DNA from: Eledone cirrhosa
Lineage: Eukaryota
DNA: 64,000 bases
Direction: 5' to 3'
Assembly (NCBI GenBank): GCA_964016885.1
Contig: OZ024757.1
Coordinates: forward strand, 23,622,001-23,686,000
In this document: positions 5,598 to 62,149 of the stretch, in pieces
Layout: each line of letters begins with the position of its first letter
Numbering within the stretch: the stretch's first letter is position 1
The notes under the pieces: model-generated
What the model was told of the DNA's origin: nothing
Database searches by the model: none
Seen by the model: the letters and a program-made list of their open reading frames with translations, nothing else
Translations under genes and position numbers: made by a program

Positions 5598-6180
5598 ATC
5601 ATCATCATCATCATCATCGTTTAACGTCCCTGTTCCACGCTTGCATGGGTTTGGACGGGGGTAGTCCCACTTGAGGCAAGAGTGGTTGTCTTGCTCGCAT
5701 AGGACTGTCTGGCGGGTTTTCTACGGCTGGATGCTCTTCCTAACACCAACCACATTTACAGTGTGGGGCTGGGAGGTTTTTACCGTGTTGCCTACACGGC
5801 CACATTTACAGCGTGGACTGTCTGGCGGGTTTTCTACAGCTGGATGCCCTTCCTAACACCAACCACATTTACAGTGTGGGGCTGGGAGGTTTTTACCGTG
5901 TTGCCTACACGGCCACATTACAGCATGGACTGTCTGGCGGGTTTTCTACAGCTGGATGCCCTTCCTAACACCAACCACATTTACAGTGTGGGGCTGGGAG
6001 GTTTTTACCGTGTTGCCTACACGGCCACATTACAGCGTGGACTGATATATATATATATACACACAGTCCTATACGAGTGAGACACGGTCACATGACCAAT
6101 TTTGCCTCAAATGGGACAATTCCCGTCTAACCCGTGCTAGTGTGGAAGATAGACATTAAACAATGATGATGATGATGGCA
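5598..6180 (-). mobile_element. SINE-A-related subfamily with a triplicated internal segment of about 115 bp
   Basis: Near-identical sequence at 22683-22885, 28450-28710 and 32640-32990 (opposite strand). Confidence 0.7.
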
Positions 6181-9062: not shown

Positions 9063-9072
9063 AAAACATAAC

Positions 9073-9146
9073 TATTTCATCTGATGAACGAGCCAGACAT
9101 TTCTGTAAGGATCATCTAGTTTCCTGAAACCTTTGGTAATGGAATA
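9073..9146 (+). ncRNA. Type I hammerhead ribozyme (same family as 62002), helix II partly decayed
   Basis: TATTTCAT CTGATGA ... GAAA CCTTTGGTA ATGGAATA; 8-bp helix I. Confidence 0.7.
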
Positions 9147-10086: not shown

Positions 10087-10653
10087 GTTTAATGTCCATT
10101 TTCCATGCTAGCATGTGTTAGACAGGTCCTCCCATTTGAGTTAAGTTCTGTCAGGTGACCGTGTCTTACTCATATAGGACTGCTTCTGGCAAGGTTTCTA
10201 CAGCTGGGTGCCCTTCCTAACACCAACCACATTTACAGAATATATTGTGTATACATAGCCGATCTTTTGGATTTTTATGAAGTGCTGAGGGGATAAAGTT
10301 AATATAAATAGTAGTGTGCTCATGTGCAGGGTGATGACCCTTAAAGATGGAGAAATATGTTGATGCTGATGCCAACTTTTTCTGTCTTTAAGGGTTGATA
10401 AGTTGATAAGCTCTCTGCAGTGTGGAATCTTCACGTTTTATGGTCAAACATTCTCTTATTTGAGTTTGTCCAGGTGTTATAGTTATAAAATGTTGGTTTG
10501 TACATTTCAATTTATTCTTTTAATTGATATGTATTCTTCATTCCTTTCATAGACTTTATGGTTTTCCCTCTGGTGGTATTCTATCCCCTATAATTGAACA
10601 CATACCTCTTTGTCCATTTTTCTCTATATATTGTCTTATAAAGAGCCTGGATT

Positions 10654-11304
10654 CTATTCTGCCAAGACCAGAAGATCAACTCCCAGAACAACAGGTGGCT
10701 CGCTGTCTCATCCAAAGACGTGCCCAGAGTCATGCAGACAAAGTTTCCAGCGACAACATTGGTCTTAGGTGTCGTCAGCAGTCAAGGTGACGTCATGCCA
10801 CCTCACTTCTTCCCTGAGGGCCTCAAGCTGAACACTGATGGCTACATCTGCGTTCTGAGTGAGGTAGTAAAGCCCTGGATCGACCAGGTAGCTGCAGGTA
10901 GGCCATACGTGTGGCAGCAAGACTCAGCGCCCTGCCATACCAGCCGAAAGACCCAAGCCTGGCTGTCAGAGAACTTCGTCGACCACACTTCACCTGACAT
11001 CTGGCCTCCCAGCTCACCTGACTGCAACCCCCTCGACTTCTTTGTGTGGGGTGCAGTGGAATGAGACACCAACAGATCTAGCTGTAATACGAAAGTCGGG
11101 GGAGAGTGACAAAGGCCTGTAGCCGGTTCCGAGGCCGCCTTGAGGCCGTCATCAAAGCCAATGGCAGGTTTATCGAGTGAGATCGAAAGAACAAGTCATG
11201 AAGACAAACTGACCCAAGTTTGATAAATAAATCTTAAAAAATAAAACTACTGTCTTATTTTTTCCTAGACAGTAATCTTGCAAACAAATATTGTCCACAC
11301 CCTG
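10654..11304 (+). mobile_element. Tc1/mariner DD37D (maT) transposase relic, 3' half with right TIR
   Basis: QQDSAPCH...WPPSSPDCNPLDF, with 37 residues between the 2nd and 3rd Asp. In-frame TGA after GAVE. Ends CACCCTG|TA. Confidence 0.9.
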
Positions 11305-29297: not shown

Positions 29298-29324
29298 TAT
29301 ATATTCTTAAATAAACATTTCTAG

Positions 29325-29378
29325 CTGATGAACGATATCAAACGTTTCTGTTAGAATCGTCTGACTTCGTGAAACCTT
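29325..29378 (+). ncRNA. Partial hammerhead (same family as 9073 and 62002), cleavage site and helix I 3' strand deleted
   Basis: CTGATGA ACGA...TCGT GAAACCTT, then jumps directly to the downstream gtgttg motif. Confidence 0.55.
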
Positions 29379-29539: not shown

Positions 29540-29610
29540 TATTTTATTATGCACATTTCAAAAACAAATATCATCATGGGATGATATTTGCGTTCTCATC
29601 AGATAAAATA
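29540..29610 (-). ncRNA. Type I hammerhead ribozyme with a long helix II
   Basis: Minus strand: TATTTTAT CTGATGA GAACGCAAATATCATC-ccat-GATGATATTTGTTTTT GAAA TGTGCATA ATAAAATA. Confidence 0.82.
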
Positions 29611-30176
29611 GGGAGACATGATATGAAGCTTAAAAAACATTTGCGAGCAGTGAAGTGTTAATACTATCTATTGGTCACAACTCCAGGTAGAAGGAGCAAC
29701 ATGGAATAAAGTGTCTTGCTCAAGGACATAACGCATTGCCTGGTCCAGGAATCAAACTCACAACCTCACGATTGCAAATCCAATCCTCTAAGCACTTAGC
29801 CACGCATCTTCATATATATGTATAGAGGCACATGGCTATAGGAGGCACATGGCTTAGTGGTTAGAGCATTGGCCTTTCAATCGAAAGGTTGTGAGTTCAA
29901 TTCTCAGACCAGGTGATGTGTTGTTTCCTTGAGCAAGACACTTTATTTCACATTGCTCCAGTTTAATCAGCTGTAGAAATGAGATGATAGGGACTGGGGT
30001 CCATATCATTCCACTGCAAAGTGGTCGTGGAGGTGCCATGGAAAAAAAAGCACTCAGCACTCACTGTAAATGAGGTTGGTGTTAGGAAGGGCATGCAGCT
30101 GTAGAAATCAAGCCAGAATCAGTTCCCGTCCCACCCTTGCAAGCAGGGAAAAAGTGGACGTAAAATGAAATGATGA

Positions 30177-30244: not shown

Positions 30245-31058
30245 TTTCAGAACTTGAATTATATACCTTATGTGCTCAAGAGGTGCTACTTGCTTACCAA
30301 AGCGCAGAAGGACAGGAGGAAACAGAGGGTGTCAGCCCTAATCAAGGACCTCAAACACACAACCTCCGGGATGCTGAGATTCTTTTCCGATGAGAAGAAT
30401 TTTTTCCAGAACCTGAAACTGAACCGACAGAATGACAGGTGATTGGCTGAGTTCCTATCATCATGCACTTGAAGTATCTGGCCCATCTACTGGTACTTGG
30501 TGATATTAGCAGCAAGGGGGATTTCATGGAGCCTGTCTTCATCCCCAACAGCCTCTGTCTTGGTGCCAATAGCTATGTGAGGGTTCTGGATAAGCACATC
30601 AAGCCATGGATGGACAGGGCGACTAATGGGAGGCCTGACATCTTTCAACAGGACTCCACCCCTGCCCACAAGGCCATGACCCCCAGGCCTGGCTCCTCAC
30701 CACTGGTCACCCAAATAATGGCCTCCTTCAATGCCAGACTGTAATCCTCTTGACTATTTTGTGTTGGGCATCTTGGATAGGAGGTAAACAGCAGGCCCAA
30801 CGCCAAGGAAGATCTCAAGGCAACCATCAGAGATGCCATGGCCAACATGGACAGGGTCACCATCGCCAAGGCCTGCTCCAGCTTCTGGTCCTCCCTAGAG
30901 AAAGTGGTGGTTGCTGATGGTGGCCACATCAAGGGATATTTTTACCTTATATATGTGCGTAACTGTGCATAAAGTTTCATTGAAATATATTAATTTGTTA
31001 TATAAAAAACACTTTATATTATCCATTAATTTTTCCCAGATTTATCTGTCCCACACTG
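30245..31058 (+). mobile_element. Second, more decayed maT-like transposase relic
   Basis: FFSDEKNF, KPWMD and FQQDSTPAH motifs with frameshifts. Ends CACACTG|TA. Confidence 0.85.
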
Positions 31059-31403: not shown

Positions 31404-31462
31404 GCTGTCTGATGAGGTCATAGCTGTTGTATAACAGTCATCACCGAAATATATATAACAGC
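31404..31462 (+). ncRNA. Type I hammerhead ribozyme, intact core
   Basis: Helix I GCTGT/ACAGC; CTGATGA; helix II GGTCATAGCTGTT/AACAGTCATCACC; GAAA; palindromic TATATA helix III; AUA site; AATAAA just downstream. Confidence 0.85.
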
Positions 31463-31526
31463 GACTATGAATAAACAAAGTTAATTTTAACCTGTTGACT
31501 TCCACTTCTTGTTTATATATATATAC

Positions 31527-31558
<32 letters not shown>

Positions 31559-31682
31559 ATTAAATTTCGTATTTCTTAAGAAACTTGGTATGTTTATAGA
31601 TAAACATTTAGAAAGCCATAGCTATGCAAAAAACACTGGGGGCTATCGCCCTCTGGTGGTGTCCAGCAGAAGCAAGGGGGAC

Positions 31683-31728
31683 AATCGCCGATGCATTTCG
31701 AACTTAACTGGTCCTCATCAGGACAATC
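31683..31728 (-). ncRNA. Minimal type I hammerhead ribozyme, intact core
   Basis: Minus strand: GATTGTC CTGATGA GGAC-cagttaa-GTTC GAAA TGCATC GGCGATT. Helix III is the palindrome ATGCAT; AUC site. Confidence 0.88.
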
Positions 31729-32365
31729 CCTCCCACTCTAGCGACTGCTGGACTTGAAAACAGGCGGGAATATATGGTTTTCATGAGGTGATTAACCTCA
31801 TTTGCATATGAAGCTGTATAAGTTGGCTAAACTTATAATAGAATAGAAATATACTGTTCTTTAGAAATACGAAATTTAATACATATCTAGATATGTATTA
31901 AAGATATATATCTAGATATGCATTATAGATATATATTTAGAGCTATGCCTGAAGCTAAATCCTAATTCTATTCTATATATCATCATCATCATTTTACGTC
32001 CGCTTTTCCCTGCTTGCAAGGGTGGGACGTAACTGATTCTGGCTTGATTTCTACAGCTGGTTGCCCTTCCTAACACCAACCTCATTTACAGTGAGTGCTG
32101 GGTGCTTTTTTGCCGTGGCACCTACACGTCCACTTTACAGTGTGGGCTGGGTGCTTTTTTTTTCGTGGCACCTCCACGACCACTTTGCAGTGGAATGATA
32201 GGGACCCCAGTCCCTATCATCTCATTTCTACAGCTGAGTAAACTGGAGCAATGTGAAATAAAGTGTCTTGCTCGAGGAAACAACACATCACCCGGTCTGA
32301 GAATTGAACTCACAACCTTTCGATTGCAAGACCAATGCTCTAACCACTAAGCCATGTGCCTCCAT

Positions 32366-33952: not shown

Positions 33953-35107
33953 GAGGTTATATTTAATTTGTTGGAGTAAATATTCAATATATTAATAAAT
34001 GGAAACTATATTTATAAAACCATAATTATTTTATTATACATATTGCATGAGGCTAATCCCAGTCTCTGAACATTGAATGCATTTACCCAAAAAGTAGAAC
34101 TGGTCTACATCAGTGGAGACAAACAAGGTCGCAGGTTTTATATCAGAGTGACCTTCTCCTAGAGAGATGTCTTAATGAAGACTAGGAGTCTTTCGATCAA
34201 CAACAAAAAAATCTTTATTGCATGGCCACCGACTCCCTTGAGTTCCTTCTACCCTTTGACAGGTTTTGTTTTTCATCGCGCAGGGTGCCCAAAATCACCG
34301 TCCTCACCAAGCAAACTTGATGGTGTCACCAGTTAAGTCCCTGATGACTGAACGATGCACGGGTTGTACTGGGTTACATGTTACCAGTAATGCTGAAGAG
34401 CGACTTGACATATACATACATATATATATATACACACTCGTACATACATACACACATACATTACATACATACATACATACATACACATACACATATACAT
34501 TACATACATTACTACATAGATGCATGTATACATAACATACATGCATGACTGCACCCATTCATACACACACAGATATATACAGATACACATACACTCATAC
34601 AAGCATACATACACTCATGCATACATATATGCATACATGCATACATGCATACATACACACATGCACATCACATATATACATATACACACATATATATATA
34701 GATACATGTATTACATACATGTATTACATACATATATAGATATATGTATGTAATATGTATGTAATATGTATCTATTACATACACACATCACATATATACA
34801 TACATATATTAGATACACACACATCACATATATACATAGATATATCACATGCATACACACACACATACACATACACACAATGAAACAGCTGGATGTTAAT
34901 AAATCTCTTTTGTTTTAGAAAATACAAAACATAAATGACTATAAATGGAAGAAATAAAAGAAATGACTATTTGCTATCATGTCCATTTTGATTGACTCAA
35001 CATAAAATATTTATATAACTCAGCCAACAGTCAGATAATTATCGATGAGATTTACAAATGCTTGCAGTGTTTCTAGTGGACAACAAATATATTTTCTCTC
35101 AGATTTA

Positions 35108-45228: not shown

Positions 45229-45439
45229 CTCGTATACGAGAGACGTGTGTTGACGTGTGTGAACAAGCTCGGCTACCGAGTCGGATTTACTTACTCAAAA
45301 AGTGAGTTTTGATTAATTTTTTTATACTGTAATATACGTTAACCCCTTGCCTTGGTCGTCAAACTTTGAGTTTATTTATTTTCGCCCCTTTTTGGGGCGA
45401 ATTTTCCAGTTAAAAATTTATTACGGCAAACTAATAGAA

Positions 45440-47182
45440 ATGGACGGAATTTTCACATCTCATCCTAACGTGAAAGCCACGCCCCCTAAGAAAGGTGATA
45501 CAGAGAAGCTAGAAGCACAAGGCTCTAAGTCTTCCCTCCTCACTTCTGCAAAAGAAACATGGAACACGGAATTAAAAGAAAAATTTGTAGAAATGGGTGA
45601 AAACCCAGAAAGTCACATAAACGCAGACAAAAACATCAACGACAATAACAGCAATAGTCACAACACCAACCAAGGAAAAAATAACGATAACACCAAACAA
45701 AGTGAACCCACTACTGGTACCTCCTTTGCACAGGCGGTCCGGAAAACACAAACCTGCAAGCAACTGGACATTACAACTCTGAGAGAAAAGATGAAGGAAG
45801 CGAAACAGTATGTAACTTTCAAAGAAGGAGGAGACTTCACAATCACCTCCCCACAAGAAATCAAAAGAGACACGACGCTAAGAACGATATCTTTCAGAAC
45901 AATTTCCAACATAACAAGGAAACCAACTCAATTATCCCAAAAAGAGATTGAGCTGGTCCTAAAAAATGTGTGGAGTGATATATCGTTCATACAAAAAGGG
46001 CCACTCTATGGGAATATAACGGTCCTAATGAAGGATCAATTGACGGCCAGGAAATACTCTGTGGCACCAATTGTTTCCAAGATATATACATTTTTCCCCA
46101 CATATTTAGGGAAAAGAACGCAGAAGATAAGGGTCTCCGGAATCCGGCCAAATGCATGCATTTCCTGGGTACTAACAGGATTTTTAGAAGACGAGGACGG
46201 AATCCTCTCAGTAGGAGAAGTCACCACAGACGTTTTCGGCGGTTTGAGCGTGGAGGTTCTGGTCCAAATGAGACCAGAACGAATCGCTAGAATACCACAG
46301 AGGGTGTCCCTCGATGGAGAAACATTTATATATATTTCAGCCGAGGGTAGGAGGCCCATATGTTACTACTGTTCAAGCAGGGGTCATCTAAGGGCTGCTT
46401 GTCCTCAATTGACAAAAAAAAAGGCTCTTTTGCCTACACCCCACACACCACCACCGCCACCACCACCACCACCACCACCTCCACCACCACCACCACAACA
46501 ACAACAAAAACAACAGGGAAAAATAACACAAGACACGGCCCCACCCAAAACAACTCCCAAAACACACACAAATACAACAAAACCCCAAAATACACCACTA
46601 CCTGACAGCACGGACGAGGACCCAGCGGAAACGGCACCTAGTGACGAAGAGGGGGAACCCTTCCAACCTGTAAAAAGGAAAAAAAGAAAGCACCACTCGA
46701 ACATAAACGAAACAAACACACAACCACCAACAAAAACAAAACAAACAGAACAAACAAAATCCGCCCCACCCCAAAACATAACACATACAACAAAACGTAA
46801 GCACACACAAGAACAACAAACAAACACAACACAAATAAAACAGTATACATACATTAACACAAATAACAAAGAACTAGTAAAAACAATACACAAAGACCCT
46901 TTGGTGGAAACTGAAGGGCAATTCTTTGCAAGCGCGGCCAACAAACCGCATTTAAAAATGATAAGACTCCCAATGGACACCTATGCAAAACTAAGAGAGA
47001 ACTTTCCTGAGGACGTGGGGAAAACATGTACTCGACCCTATAACCGCGTCCTCTTGAAACGTTTCCCCACCCACACCTCACCAAACACCCCCACTCCACC
47101 ACAGAACAACACCCCACCAAACAACCCCTCCAATACGCCCATGGATATTGTGCAACCTGCTCCTCAGGAGCCGAACAGGTAG
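45440..47182 (+). CDS. LINE ORF1, gag-like nucleic-acid-binding protein (about 580 aa from the first ATG)
   Basis: CX2CX4HX4C knuckle CYYCSSRGHLRAAC, poly-Pro/Gln linker and a basic KRKKRK patch. The track starts at TTG 45347; the first ATG is at 45440. Confidence 0.88.
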   Translation: MDGIFTSHPNVKATPPKKGDTEKLEAQGSKSSLLTSAKETWNTELKEKFVEMGENPESHINADKNINDNNSNSHNTNQGKNNDNTKQSEPTTGTSFAQAVRKTQTCKQLDITTLREKMKEAKQYVTFKEGGDFTITSPQEIKRDTTLRTISFRTISNITRKPTQLSQKEIELVLKNVWSDISFIQKGPLYGNITVLMKDQLTARKYSVAPIVSKIYTFFPTYLGKRTQKIRVSGIRPNACISWVLTGFLEDEDGILSVGEVTTDVFGGLSVEVLVQMRPERIARIPQRVSLDGETFIYISAEGRRPICYYCSSRGHLRAACPQLTKKKALLPTPHTPPPPPPPPPPPPPPPPQQQQKQQGKITQDTAPPKTTPKTHTNTTKPQNTPLPDSTDEDPAETAPSDEEGEPFQPVKRKKRKHHSNINETNTQPPTKTKQTEQTKSAPPQNITHTTKRKHTQEQQTNTTQIKQYTYINTNNKELVKTIHKDPLVETEGQFFASAANKPHLKMIRLPMDTYAKLRENFPEDVGKTCTRPYNRVLLKRFPTHTSPNTPTPPQNNTPPNNPSNTPMDIVQPAPQEPNR

Positions 47183-47203
47183 GTCCTTCCTCTTTTAACC
47201 AAC

Positions 47204-50200
47204 ATGGCTGATATAAGAGTTGGGTTTCTGAATGTACGTGGCCTGGGACTGTCTTGGAAACAAGGCAAACTTTTAAACGATCTCAGGTCACATAGAATGG
47301 ATGTAATGGCTATTTGCGAGTCCAGGATCAGCAGCGAGCACCAACTGGCGCCCCTCTTCGACGACTTTGAGATCTTCGCATCTCTCTGTCAACCGGGGGG
47401 TGGGGGTGGAGTTGTCGTTCTGCTGCGAAAACACCTGGGCCTCGCCATACAGAAGGTGCACCTGGACCCGGAGGGTCGACTGGTGGTTTTAGACGTCGGC
47501 AGTAGTGAAAGTGGAGCCCTTAGACTAATAGCTGTGTACGCCCCTTTTTGGGCAGCGCGGCCGGAATACTTCCAACGTCTGGAAACTTTTCTGGGAACGT
47601 CCCGCTCCTTGCTTTTAGTGGGGGACTGGAATGGTATCCTGGATGCACGTTGGGACTATGTAGGGGCATGTGCCAATAGAGGGGGGTGTAAAAGCCTCAA
47701 AAGGTTAATCGGCCGATTTGACCTGGCCGATAGATATCGACTAGATTTTCCGACTGTACCACTATGGACGTGGACCAATCGCAGTGGAACATCTAGGTCG
47801 TACCTAGATAGGGTCCTAGTTAGAGAGAACGATAGGGACACATTTAGCTGTCCAAAAATGTTCATGGTTGACTATTCGGATCACAAGTTAGTGACCTGCA
47901 TAGCCAACCTTGATAGAACCCATAGACAGGGACCCGGTTACTGGAAGCTGAACTTGTCCTTACCGAGAAGCAAAGCTTACAGTAAACGGATTAGCACGTT
48001 AGTTAAGCAGAATTTGACAGGGGCAATTGTCAACAACAGGTGGTGGAGCTCTCTTAAGAGAGCAATTAGAATAGAATCGATAGGTTTTAGTCAGGAATTA
48101 GCAAGGGATAGGAACAAGACGGAAAGGGAATTAGTAGATAGAGTAGAAGAGGCGATTAGGAGTGGCAATGTAGCCGGCGTGCTGGCATCAAGAATGGCCT
48201 TAGACCAGTTCTTTGAGGTGAAGCATGAAGGCTGCGTTGTCAGGAGTAAAATACGTGCTCTGGGTAATGAGGGAGCCAAAGCTGTAAGCTGGGCCCGAGT
48301 GACAGAGGCAAAAAGTGGGAACAAGTCCACGATTCGGTCTTTGAAGGACCAGGATGGGCGTGTGATCCTTGAACCTGGGCAGATGTGTGCGGCCTTTCAG
48401 CGGCACTTTGCACGACTGTTCGAGAGGGGCGGCGCGCCGGGTGAGACTATGGATTTCAATCCATACCTCGACGGTCTGCCGCGCCTCTCGGACGCGGAGG
48501 CGAAGTCCTGCGAAAGGACGATTTCAGCTGCTGAGATAGGGGCGGCGCTGAGCCAATGCGGCAAACGCAAATCCCCGGGTCTCGATGGTCTACCATACGA
48601 GCTATATGTAGCGATGCCGGACTTGTTCTCCGATATCCTCGAAGCGGTCTACTGCAACTGGCAGCAGAACGGGAGAATTCCCAGTTCTGTGACCAAGGGC
48701 GTAGTTACGCTGGTGAGGAAGGATGAGAACAAGGGGGATGACATAAGTAACTTCAGGCCCATAACTCTGCTAAATACAGAGTTAAAGATTTTGGCCAAGG
48801 TGTTAGCGAAGAGGTTGGCGCTTGTCGTTGGAAACCTGGTGGGAGAAGCGCAGACATGCGCAATCCCGTCCAGGTCCATTCACGACAATCTCCACCTTAT
48901 GCGATACATCATAGAGAGGGTAGGGAATGAACCCGGCTTTGGTGGGGCCCTGATCAACTTGGATCAATCTAAAGCTTTCGATAGGGTTGACCATCGTTAC
49001 CTGGATGCGGTGCTCGCGGCGGCAGGCTTCGGACCCGTTTTCAGGGGTTGGATTGCTGCGATGCACAGCAGCAACGTCTGCTCAAGGGTCAAGGTGAACG
49101 GCCACCTCTCGGAGCCGTTCCAAATCATGCGATCCATCCGACAGGGATGCCCTCTCTCCTCCCTACTGTATGTGCTGGCTCTTGAGCCACTACTGCGGAA
49201 GTTGGAGCGGTTGCAGGGCATCCCTTTGGAACCGGGATTGCAGAAAGCGGCGTCGGCCTACGCCGATGACGTGACAGTAATGGTGTCGAAAACCTCGCAA
49301 ATCGGTGAGATCGGCACCTTACTGGAGGAATATGAAAGGTTTACAGGAGCCAAGCTGAACCGGGACAAGTCCGTCGGTTTGCAACTCGGAACATGGAGAG
49401 GCAAACCGATGCCCTCCAACGACGTCGTCGGACGCTGGACGGAGGGCCCGGTGAAGCTGCTTGGGGTCTGGTTCGGACCAGACCTCCAGGTGGAGAAAAA
49501 CTGGAACGAGGTAACGGCCAGGGTGTTTGCACTCACCCAGAAGTGGGCCCAGTGCAAACTATCCCTGAAAGGTCGAGCGGAGGTGGCGAATACTTATATA
49601 GCATCCGTCATCTACTACCGCTTGACCGTCGTGCCTTGCCCAGTGAAAAGACTCGCCAAAATGGAGTGCGCGCTGTTCCAATTTCTTTGGAACAAGCGGA
49701 CCCCTTTGGTGAGGAGATCCATCTGCTGTCAACACCCTTCGAAAGGAGGGCTGGGGATGCCGTGGCTACAGATGCGTAAACACGCATTAAGGCTACGGCA
49801 CCTCCAGGTATTCCTCACCGGTCAACCGGTGTGGGCCCCGTTTGTGAGGCGAGCCTTTCCCAGACTCGTCTCGCTCACCGAGCTGCAATCCTGGGTCAAG
49901 CAAAGACCGAGAAAAGTGGGCGACTGGCACATTGAATGTGCCCAGGCGCTCACGGCCCTCTGGAAAGCGGACCCGGCAATCAGTGGAGACTCCACCTCGA
50001 CATTTTATAGAGGGTTGGTACGCAGCAGGTGCGACGATGCTCTCGGAGAAGCTCTAGGCATGGAGGAAGATGAACTGGCCAGTCTGTTCGGTAGGACGTT
50101 TGGCCCTGGACCGATGGACAACTTCCAAAAGTCCCTGGCTTGGCAGTGCTACCGAGGGGCTCTACCCGTTCGAGACAAGCTCCACAGGCATGGGAGCCTG

Positions 50201-50641
50201 GGTAGAGATCCTTTGAATAAGATCTGTCCGAGATGCGTGCATGATGACGAAACCGTTGCGCACGCATTCGTACACTGCCCAGGCATTGCTGACCTGTGGG
50301 GCTATGTGGAACGACTACTGTCGAGGGTGGGACCAATCCGGTTGACCACCGAGTCCATTGTCACGATCAAACCGCCTCCCCCTTTCAAAAACGAAGGAGA
50401 GGCGGTTTTTCTCTGTGTGGTAGCCATGGCTAAAGAAGTTGTATGGTGGACGAGGCTGAAAGGGCTGAGGTCAGACACCTTTCTCTCCGGCCAACAACTG
50501 GTCCCCTTTTTCAAATACCATTTTAAAAGAAGGATCAGAATGGAGAGAGAGGTGCTCTACCCCAGCAAGTTTTATGAAAGGTGGGTGAAAGTAGGGAGAA
50601 TGGCCAGAGTGAATGGGTCTTCTCTCTATATCAGCCTGTAG
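47204..50641 (+). CDS. LINE ORF2: APE endonuclease, reverse transcriptase and C-terminal Cys/His finger (1145 aa)
   Basis: Endonuclease motifs NVRG, VYAP, GDWN, LDRVLV, SDH. RT motifs KSPGLDG, RPITLLN, DQSKAFDRVDH, RQGCPLS, YADD. C-terminal CPRC...HAFVHC. GGLG and WKLN motifs are typical of L1/Tx1. Confidence 0.97.
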   Translation: MADIRVGFLNVRGLGLSWKQGKLLNDLRSHRMDVMAICESRISSEHQLAPLFDDFEIFASLCQPGGGGGVVVLLRKHLGLAIQKVHLDPEGRLVVLDVGSSESGALRLIAVYAPFWAARPEYFQRLETFLGTSRSLLLVGDWNGILDARWDYVGACANRGGCKSLKRLIGRFDLADRYRLDFPTVPLWTWTNRSGTSRSYLDRVLVRENDRDTFSCPKMFMVDYSDHKLVTCIANLDRTHRQGPGYWKLNLSLPRSKAYSKRISTLVKQNLTGAIVNNRWWSSLKRAIRIESIGFSQELARDRNKTERELVDRVEEAIRSGNVAGVLASRMALDQFFEVKHEGCVVRSKIRALGNEGAKAVSWARVTEAKSGNKSTIRSLKDQDGRVILEPGQMCAAFQRHFARLFERGGAPGETMDFNPYLDGLPRLSDAEAKSCERTISAAEIGAALSQCGKRKSPGLDGLPYELYVAMPDLFSDILEAVYCNWQQNGRIPSSVTKGVVTLVRKDENKGDDISNFRPITLLNTELKILAKVLAKRLALVVGNLVGEAQTCAIPSRSIHDNLHLMRYIIERVGNEPGFGGALINLDQSKAFDRVDHRYLDAVLAAAGFGPVFRGWIAAMHSSNVCSRVKVNGHLSEPFQIMRSIRQGCPLSSLLYVLALEPLLRKLERLQGIPLEPGLQKAASAYADDVTVMVSKTSQIGEIGTLLEEYERFTGAKLNRDKSVGLQLGTWRGKPMPSNDVVGRWTEGPVKLLGVWFGPDLQVEKNWNEVTARVFALTQKWAQCKLSLKGRAEVANTYIASVIYYRLTVVPCPVKRLAKMECALFQFLWNKRTPLVRRSICCQHPSKGGLGMPWLQMRKHALRLRHLQVFLTGQPVWAPFVRRAFPRLVSLTELQSWVKQRPRKVGDWHIECAQALTALWKADPAISGDSTSTFYRGLVRSRCDDALGEALGMEEDELASLFGRTFGPGPMDNFQKSLAWQCYRGALPVRDKLHRHGSLGRDPLNKICPRCVHDDETVAHAFVHCPGIADLWGYVERLLSRVGPIRLTTESIVTIKPPPPFKNEGEAVFLCVVAMAKEVVWWTRLKGLRSDTFLSGQQLVPFFKYHFKRRIRMEREVLYPSKFYERWVKVGRMARVNGSSLYISL

Positions 50642-52137: not shown

Positions 52138-52254
52138 ACTTACAGCCATATCACGTTGAAAGCACCAGTTCTCGTCCACTCACAGACAACAACAACATAG
52201 AGCCTTGTTAGTACTTAGATGGGTGACCAGTTGGGAAACCTAGGTGCTGTAAGC
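52138..52254 (+). pseudogene. 5S rRNA-derived sequence (pseudogene or SINE3 head)
   Basis: CTTACAGCCATATCACGTTGAAAGCACCAGTTCTCGTCC...TTAGTACTTAGATGGGTGACC...TGGGAA...GGTGCTGTAAGC follows metazoan 5S over about 117 nt. Box A is decayed and no oligo-T terminator follows directly. Confidence 0.85.
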
Positions 52255-52896
52255 AGCATTAAGTTTTTAATGGTGGTGCCCCAGCATGGTCTCAGAGTGA
52301 CAATAAAAAAAAAAGAGTGAAACCTAGGTGCTGTAAGCAGCATTAAGTTTTTAATGGTGGTGCCCCAGCATGGTCTCAGAGTGACAAAAAAAAAAAAAAG
52401 AGTGGCAGAATCGGCAGAGCGTCGGGCAATATACTTTGCAGCATCAAGTTATATCCTTGTATGTTCTGAGTTCAAGTTCCACCAAGGTTAGCTTTGCATT
52501 CTTCCTTACGGAGTCAATAAAATAAAGTACCCATTATGCACTGGGCCGATTTAATTGACTTTCTCCTTTCCTAAAATTGTTGGCCTTGTGCCTAAATCAG
52601 AAACCATTATTCTATCCATAGATAGTAAAAATTACTCATGTATTTGACTGTCAAATCTTTACTTTTACTAACATATTACAGACACTAATACACAAATGTA
52701 GTGTATTCTTCCACTGTCTCTTCTTGCACAATTAAAATAGTTCTTGCTTCTTTAATCTAACAGTTTTTGTACCATCCACCCACCCACTAAATCTACCCAA
52801 TGTACCTGACACTAGAAATAGACCTCCCTAGAAATAATAAATCCACAGCGAAACAGGTGTATTTGACTGATGAAAATGTAAATTTAACCAAATTTT

Positions 52897-54307
52897 GTAG
52901 AGTGGTCGTGCTGGTGACATGATGAAAAAGTACCCAGTCCAACCTGTCAGCACCCAGTCCACCCTGTAGAGTGGTCATGCTGGTGACATGATGAAAAAGT
53001 ACCCAGTCCAATCTGTCAGCACTCAGTCCACCCTGTAGAGTGGTCATGCTGGTGACATGATGAAAAAGTACCCAGTCCAACCTGTCAGCACCCAGTCCAC
53101 CCTGTAGAGTGGTCATGCTGGTGACATGATGAAAAAGTACCTAGTCCAATCTGTCAGCACCCAGTCCACCCTGGAGAGTGGTCATGCTGGTGACATGATG
53201 AAAAAGTACCCAGTCCAACCTGTCAGCACCCAGTCCACCCTGTAGAGTGGTCATGCTGGTGGCATGATGAAAAAGTATCCAGCCCAACCTGTCAGCACCC
53301 AGTCCACCCTGTAGAGTGGTCATGCTGGTGGCATGATGAAAAAGTACCCAGTCCAACCTGTCAGCACCCAGTCCACCCTGTAGAGTGGTCATGCTGGTGA
53401 CATGATGAAAAAGTACCCAGTCCAACCTGTCAGCACCCAGTCCACCCTGTAGAGTGGTCATGCTGGTGACATGATGAAAAAGTATCCAGCCCAATCTGTC
53501 AGCACCCAGTCCACCCTGTAGAGTGGTCATGCTGGTGACATGATGAAAAAGTATCCAGCCCAATCTGTCAGCACCCAGTCCACCCTGGAGAGTGGTCATG
53601 CTGGTGACATGATGAAAAAGTACCCAGTCCAATCTGTCAGCACCCAGTCCACCCTGTAGAGTGGTCATGCTGGTGACATGATGAAAAAGTACCCAGTCCA
53701 ATCTGTCAGCACCCAGTCCACCCTGTAGAGTGGTCATGCTGGTGACATGATGAAAAAGTACCCAGTCCAACCTGTCAGCACCCAGTCCACCCTGTAGAGT
53801 GGTAGTGCTGGTGACATGATGAAAAAGTACCCAGTCCAACCTGTCAGCACCCAGTCCACCCTGTAGAGTGGTCATGCTGGTGACATGATGAAAAAGTATC
53901 CAGCCCAATCTGTCAGCACCCAGTCCACCCTGTAGAGTGGTCATGCTGGTGACATGATGAAAAAGTACCCAGCCCAATCTGTCAGCACCCAGTCCACCCT
54001 GTAGAGTGGTCATGCTGGTGACATGATGAAAAAGTACCCAGTCCAACCTGTCAGCACCCAGTCCACCCTGTAGAGTGGTCATGCTGGTGACATGATGAAA
54101 AAGTATCCAGCCCAATCTGTCAGCACCCAGTCCACCCTGTAGAGTGGTCATGCTGGTGGCATGATGAAAAAGTACCCAGTCCAACCTGTCAGCACCCAGT
54201 CCACCCTGTAGAGTGGTCATGCTGGTGACATGATGAAAAAGTACCCAGTCCAACCTGTCAGCACCCAGTCCACCCTGTAGAGTGGTCATGCTGGTGACAT
54301 GATGAAA
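52897..54307. repeat. 69-bp minisatellite (about 20 copies)
   Basis: Unit gtagagtggtcatgctggtgacatgatgaaaaagtacccagtccaacctgtcagcacccagtccaccct. Confidence 0.95.
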
Positions 54308-62001: not shown

Positions 62002-62069
62002 CTCCATTACCAAAGGTTTCAGGACCCCAGACAATATTAACATACGTCTGGATCGTTCATCAGACAGAG
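62002..62069 (-). ncRNA. Type I hammerhead ribozyme (GAAACCTTTGGTA family)
   Basis: Minus strand: CTCTGT CTGATGA ACGATCCAGAC...GTCTGGGGTCCT GAAA CCTTTGGTA ATGGAG; GUA site. Confidence 0.78.
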
Positions 62070-62149
62070 AGGTTAACCTCTCTAATATTGTCTAGGGTCC
62101 TGAAACCTTTGGTAATGGAGTAGCTGTATATTGTGTTGTTCACTTTCTA

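Follow-up and report, generated by a model that had tools for sequence, protein, structure and literature searches.

The closest described counterparts of the locus reported here are the metazoan non-LTR retrozymes, which have been characterized as repeats of 150-450 bp with less than 50% GC that carry canonical type I hammerheads and are expressed as circles (PMC7229834). Unit lengths given in that account are 350-390 bp for mussel, 330 and 350 bp for axolotl (Rtz331 and Rtz353), and 225-245 bp for coral; the axolotl hammerhead is described as joining a 1-bp helix III to a palindromic tetraloop and as needing dimers, and the mussel retrozymes as being without most of the bases that mediate loop 1-loop 2 tertiary contacts (PMC7229834). 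Solo monomers are reported to be common, and retrozymes to group with the pLTRs of Penelope-like elements (PLEs) (10.64898/2026.07.22.740005). Penelope insertions, in turn, are described as having adjacent inverted truncated copies and a bias towards microsatellites (PMC8557442). A further hammerhead-bearing repeat of about 330 bp, newt satellite 2, has been reported to contain an internal snRNA-type promoter (Coats 1994, as cited in PMC2220036).

A locus of this general kind was analyzed in a 64,000-nt stretch of contig OZ024757.1 from Eledone cirrhosa, hereafter the window, to whose positions all coordinates refer. The element is one copy, inverted in part, of a multi-copy, non-coding repeat whose unit measures about 340 nt and bears a conserved type I hammerhead motif. 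We consider it likely that the family is a non-LTR retrozyme, probably derived from a Penelope pLTR. An earlier, sequence-only reading of this DNA had delimited the element by terminal inverted repeats at 31554..31884. The inverted arms are indeed present (31556-31582 and 31857-31883; 26/27 identical, E 8e-7 by BLAST within the window), but they are an internal part of the family unit, segment B, and not element ends: in other copies the family sequence carries on across both arm positions, and the unit closes at about 340 nt. As these copies continue past the arms into a further segment, C, the element extends over 31556-31976 instead of from arm to arm, and it amounts to about 1.1 units, of which one part is inverted and the arm occurs twice, as in Penelope-type insertions.

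The locus is ordered as A-B on the minus strand, placed back to back with the end of A, B, C, and the start of A on the plus strand. On the left, a (TA)n/(TG)n microsatellite (31510..31555), into which the left copy fades, is judged from the sequence and the arm alignment to be the probable target or an expanded spacer. It is followed by the left arm of segment B (31556..31582, minus) and by segment A (31583..31848, minus), the 266-nt, self-paired unit body in which the hammerhead sense is likewise minus; GC is 41% over 31556-31848. The present copy has a deletion at 31782..31783, where many other copies carry about 12 extra bases and where loose ends fall at 31780-31783. The inversion junction at 31848..31850 is confined to this locus, as seen from loose ends behind 31848 and from a fall in X1 contig depth from 18052 to 514 across 31849-31865, after which depth stands at about 5600-5800 over 31941-31975. 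The plus-sense piece begins at 31850..31883 with the last bases of A and segment B, the latter being the right arm found by BLAST and arm alignment. An AT-rich spacer follows (31878..31940, plus), measuring 63 nt here versus 15-21 nt in other copies and overlapped by a perfect 28-nt palindrome at 31875-31902. Next comes segment C (31941..31965, plus), which in other copies lies directly before the start of A, as judged from the loose ends behind 31848 and from joints leading from 31877 to 31941. Finally, the 11 nt at 31966..31976 (plus) are the same as those with which segment A starts (minus 31848-31838), a terminal redundancy indicating that more than one unit was copied. The outer left and right ends of the inverted copy pair are asymmetric.

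The surroundings consist of microsatellite-rich DNA with LINE, SINE-like, and Tc1 remnants. A very frequent repeat end that starts with (ATC)n adjoins the element on its right (31979-32029) and recurs at about 20 further places; it is probably the tail of a LINE or SINE family. A tRNA-derived SINE-like head lies at 32297-32354 (minus; 30.5 bits), with near-identical inverted copies at 29693-30070, about 2 kb away (230 nt, 95%). Farther off, an apparently intact LINE at 45317-50641 (plus), which we take to be L1/Tx1-like, encodes an ORF1 with a zinc knuckle, whose nearest atlas cluster is mostly molluscan, and a 1152-aa ORF2 (47183-50638) with endonuclease, reverse transcriptase (RT), and zf-RVT domains; this ORF2 gave the only RT match among the 141 of 169 listed ORFs that were examined. 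A Tc1/mariner-like transposase fragment at 10642-11061 (plus) has DDE_3-bearing relatives, with arthropod relatives at 55-72% identity, and a second such fragment at about 30450-30940 is recognized by similar translation only. A 5S rRNA-like sequence at 52138-52255 (plus; 69 bits), beside a tandem array at about 52800-54300, may be a gene, a pseudogene, or a SINE head.

The multi-copy nature of the family and the order of its unit emerge from public sequencing data mapped to 31536-31975 (440 bases) at 80% likeness, in which X1 and X3 are contig sets from one sample and X4 and X5 are RAD reads from two other samples. BLAST detected no second copy of the unit in the 64-kb window; across these four runs, by contrast, 3272 (X1) and 3444 (X3) contigs and 1288 (X4) and 1235 (X5) RAD reads mapped, mostly 80-95% alike to the present copy, and a single variant was common to up to 125 distinct contigs (the count being capped at 128). 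Summed contig depth was not taken as copy number, and the RAD reads come from few loci; the longest contigs, however, stand at a depth of only 3-14, from which a family of hundreds to thousands of copies may fairly be deduced. Variants, joints, and loose ends are discussed from the best-supported 40 of 143, 15 of 75, and 24 of 700, respectively. The link from C to A is given by 30 X1 contigs that exit at 31848 into the reverse complement of 31941-31965, their consensus matching it in 23 of 25 letters when read by eye. Among the 15 best-supported of the 75 joints, those from 31876/31877 to 31941/31944, seen in 2-6 contigs and separated by 15-21 letters of other sequence, link B to C, and those from 31589-31639 to 31857, on opposite strands and in both contigs and reads, link A to B. 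The family unit is thus ordered A-B-C-A, head to tail; its length through these links is 266 + 21 + 18 + 25 = 330 nt, or about 340 nt with the roughly 12 nt missing at 31782. This order is pieced from separate links in short contigs and reads, as none of the mapped records spanned a whole unit or two tandem hammerheads. Antisense-then-sense flips similar to that of the locus occur at 31626, 31734, and 31765, in one contig each, and are weak, having a short side of 20-47 letters. Read ends pile up at 31876 and at 31967, but both positions fall on AATT sites in RAD libraries, so the piles were rejected as element ends and are library artefacts. The runs listed for the sequence included no RNA set, which has no bearing on its expression. 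A metagenome scan with a 31-nt pattern returned no matches, and one with a 20-nt pattern returned two, both attributable to chance (homology over only 20-26 nt).

The hammerhead itself occupies 31683..31728 on the minus strand, as located by motif scan and supported by read variants, and its 46 nt adopt the canonical type I geometry: the core (CUGAUGA / GAAA / UH) is intact, helix I has 7 pairs, helix II has 4 pairs and a 7-nt loop, and the predicted cut falls between 31690 and 31689. Helix III is formed by the palindrome ATGCAT (31691..31696, minus), which gives 1 bp and a tetraloop in a monomer and a 6-bp duplex between two molecules, with a computed energy of -4.7 kcal/mol for the intermolecular pairing. 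The sequence-only reading had described a perfect minimal hammerhead of 46 nt on the minus strand with this palindrome, within a PLE pLTR remnant. The motif, its palindrome, and its core were borne out; "perfect", however, is too strong, given that G-U pairs account for 4 of the 11 in the stems and that the best fold of the monomer has a slipped helix I (pair probabilities of 0.04-0.09 for the active helix I and 0.0 for helix III), and the minimal PLE class is a poor fit to a motif whose 4-bp helix II, lack of a bulge after A9, and long helix I constitute the canonical retrozyme geometry. The accompanying suggestion that dimerization may be needed has gained ground, since published work treats the combination of a palindromic loop and a helix III of 1 bp as the hallmark of dimer-dependent cleavage (PMC4209133; PMC7229834). 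It is this feature that the motif shares with axolotl HHR_Amex1, in which it is dimer-dependent, whereas most invertebrate retrozymes are described as cutting well as monomers (PMC7229834); the present family, though from an invertebrate, has a weak, amphibian-like helix III. Because the solo copy has one hammerhead only, extra G-U pairs, and a misfolding helix I, it is predicted to be a poor cutter and is probably inactive.

Folding of the minus strand further predicts a long stem that extends helix I (31660..31760). The arms inflate the z-score obtained for the element as a whole (-8.9); refolding of the body alone gave -80.2 kcal/mol (z -4.0), a value that none of 200 shuffles equalled. The body folds alike when its opposite strand is used (z -4.2), so the fold score gives no strand information. 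An Rfam search returned no hammerhead match at the gathering score or at E<=5. Three hammerheads were counted in the 64 kb, versus one match in 20 shuffled windows in one scan and none in 30 in a second. Of the other two, one lies at 31404-31462 (plus), 94 nt left of the element; it belongs to another family, has the strand opposite to that of the main hammerhead, and resembles the PLE type, with a helix II region of 30 nt, an 8-nt palindromic helix III, and a 5-bp helix I. In the third, at 29540-29610 (minus), which also looks more PLE-like than the main one, helix II forms a long hairpin and helix III is an 8-nt near-palindrome; short sequences resembling its 3' part occur at 34027, 42889, and 62311. 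Small dispersed repeats at 29311-29378, 9068-9133, and 62013-62074, in which CTGATGA is followed about 35-40 nt on by GAAAC, failed the stem filters and are possibly degenerate PLE hammerheads.

Variation within the family bears on whether the motif has been maintained. Among the 40 best-supported of the 143 variants, none falls on the 16 core and palindrome positions, versus 10 on the 30 other hammerhead positions (Fisher p 0.009). Eight of these 10 are stem changes and all eight are pairing-compatible, although the variants are unphased; the two outside the stems are an allowed change of the cleavage-site base from C to A and a change of one loop base. Variants at 31688 and 31725 convert the two core-proximal U-G pairs of the present copy into U-A and C-G in most of the contig depth. 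The shares of the variants at 31713 and 31701 sum to 0.75-0.94 in all six read sets, as expected of alternatives, matching A-U and G-C subfamilies; also in all six, the share of 31700 is at least that of 31714, and that of 31685 at least that of 31726. The hammerhead of the family is therefore better paired than that of the present copy, and the combination of an invariant core with stem changes that preserve pairing in the different subfamilies suggests that the RNA fold was under selection while the family spread.

Taken as a family, the repeat displays several of the features by which retrozymes are recognized: a type I core with the corresponding helix sizes, a unit within 150-450 bp, GC below 50%, no coding capacity (the ORFs overlapping the element gave no Pfam match), multiple copies in which the hammerhead is conserved as a structure, and a self-paired monomer. 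It resembles the described metazoan non-LTR retrozymes in its unit of about 340 nt, its GC content, its lack of an ORF, its one type I hammerhead per unit, its self-pairing, and its head-to-tail links (PMC7229834); it differs from them in that the locus holds a lone copy, about 1.1 units long and inverted internally, and in that a CTCF-like site and an octamer are present.

By analogy with these published systems, the family likely spreads through circles of self-cleaved RNA, and a life cycle may be sketched. Head-to-tail copies would be transcribed to oligomers, in which two hammerheads would pair through ATGCAT and cut, probably as dimers as in axolotl HHR_Amex1, and a host RNA ligase would close the resulting monomer of about 340 nt into a circle. 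The circle would then be copied past its start by a Penelope-type reverse transcriptase/endonuclease, which would insert the cDNA, at this locus into a (TA)/(CA) microsatellite. The copy would have been flipped during or after insertion, by a template switch or by twin priming, the latter being an alternative route to inversion; such a flip, in duplicating segment B, would give rise to the apparent terminal inverted repeats. The copy crosses the cut site without a break and has its two ends at other positions, consistent with a template that was either a circle or an uncut multimer. Its inversion is of the kind described for PLE insertions, in which truncated copies lie next to the insert in inverted orientation (PMC8557442).

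Under a closely related explanation, the element would be what is left, in inverted form, of the pLTR of an autonomous Penelope-like element: the 3' non-coding end of a PLE with coding capacity, 5'-truncated, accompanied by an adjacent inverted copy, and with no life cycle of its own. The sequence-only reading had favoured such a remnant, and parts of it endure, namely the inversion and a kinship in kind to Penelope pLTRs. PLE insertions are described as often having an inverted 5'-truncated copy at the 5' end together with a 30-40-bp tail (PMC8557442), and an inverted truncated copy beside the 5' end is present here; a small palindromic helix III occurs in some PLE hammerheads (PMC4209133); and, as retrozymes are placed phylogenetically near pLTRs, the two explanations grade into each other (10.64898/2026.07.22.740005). 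The element thus shares with hammerhead-bearing pLTRs a type I motif, a palindromic helix III, an adjacent inverted truncated copy, and a microsatellite neighbourhood (PMC4209133; PMC8557442). Against this, the links of the roughly 340-nt unit all close and leave no room for an ORF, and the short helix II without a bulge and the long helix I differ from the minimal hammerheads of schistosome PLEs, for which a helix II of 7-8 bp, a helix I of 4-5 bp, and a bulge are reported (PMC4209133). Moreover, no GIY-YIG or PLE RT match was found among the 141 of 169 listed ORFs examined, although decayed ORFs could be missed; these included 83 of the 85 listed ORFs of at least 45 aa in 27.5-36.5 kb, the 28 omitted being mostly other LINE/Tc1 frames or near-duplicates, and the ORFs near the element yielded no partner PLE. 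On balance, a mere pLTR remnant is unlikely.

We regard as very improbable a third explanation, in which a satellite-like DNA repeat of PLE or retrozyme origin carries a fossil hammerhead, now spreads at the DNA level only, and acquired the inversion by later DNA rearrangement. The monomer fold of the present copy, which is not the active one, is compatible with it, as are the 28-nt palindrome and the expanded spacer, both of which represent DNA-level rearrangement at this locus. Local tandem amplification has also been proposed, and one of nine predicted Xenopus retrozyme dimers is reported to have cut in vitro, eight of the nine tested staying uncut (10.64898/2026.07.22.740005), a result that weighs against the retrozyme reading in general. 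The unchanged core and the pairing-preserving stem changes across subfamilies nevertheless speak against a fossil. The weakest contender, a MITE-type DNA transposon with 27-bp terminal inverted repeats and a captured hammerhead, is extremely unlikely and was rejected: although the arms (26/27) lie 328 bp apart in a short, non-coding element like those of Tc1/mariner- or hAT-derived MITEs, a TA inside both arm ends is compatible with a TA target duplication (indistinguishable here from the arm itself), and Tc1-like transposase remnants occur in the window, the inverted repeats are not family termini, given that other copies pass through both arm positions, that 31941-31975 is as multi-copy as the body, that the junction inside the right arm is rare (X1 depth of 514 versus 18052 in the preceding bin), that the read-end pile at 31876 is an AATT site and no element end, and that the 10-nt flanks outside the arms are unrelated to each other.

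Within the retrozyme interpretation, two short motifs deserve separate consideration. The CTCF-like motif and the octamer noticed in the sequence-only reading are both present, and both are features of the family, with regulatory roles that are putative. The former, a 13-mer (CCACCAGAGGGCG, 31647..31659, minus) recovered by motif scan, has its 3' half in a predicted RNA hairpin; the latter (31800..31807; ATTTGCAT on the plus strand, ATGCAAAT in the hammerhead sense, which is minus) lies 72 nt upstream of the hammerhead, has four occurrences in the 64-kb window, and is a candidate part of an internal promoter. Scored against the CTCF consensus, 0.015% of 20,000 element shuffles contained a CTCF-type 13-mer, and 2.9% contained the octamer, before allowing for the many motifs that might be noticed. 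Among the 40 best-supported of the 143 variants, none falls on 31647-31658, but 20% of the 12-nt windows of the unit are equally clean, and 31659, the first base of the 13-mer, differs in 52% of X1 depth. The snRNA-type promoter of newt satellite 2 reportedly includes an octamer. With that repeat as the model, an internal snRNA-type promoter would be the better lead for the octamer; the present repeat differs in being from an invertebrate and in that neither a proximal promoter element nor a start site was found in it. A bacterial promoter scan of the element found none, this type of scan being unsuited to animal DNA. Retrozymes, according to a review, seem to be without promoters (PMC7761336), and squid domain boundaries are reported to be enriched in CTCF-like motifs (PMC9023564), which have also been seen at coleoid loop anchors; the suggestion in the sequence-only reading that the repeat may spread regulatory sites is so far unsupported. 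That the family should represent a cephalopod type of retrozyme, hundreds to thousands of copies strong, which is bound by CTCF at its motif and has an internal promoter of its own that contains the octamer is quite improbable; were it true, an RNA-circle element would drive its own transcription and scatter chromatin boundary sites genome-wide.

The literature searched, including 40 of 45 retrozyme papers since 2020, yielded no report of retrozymes in cephalopods, although supplementary species lists might hold one. The present work adds a retrozyme-like family to a class whose existence, dimer mechanism, and link to PLEs are already published, and the surprise is accordingly modest unless the promoter or CTCF ideas hold. 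The locus also offers an example of an inversion faking a MITE. Lastly, its footprint, in which more than one unit was copied, the ends lie off the cut site, and the inversion is in the style of Penelope, bears on how animal retrozymes move.
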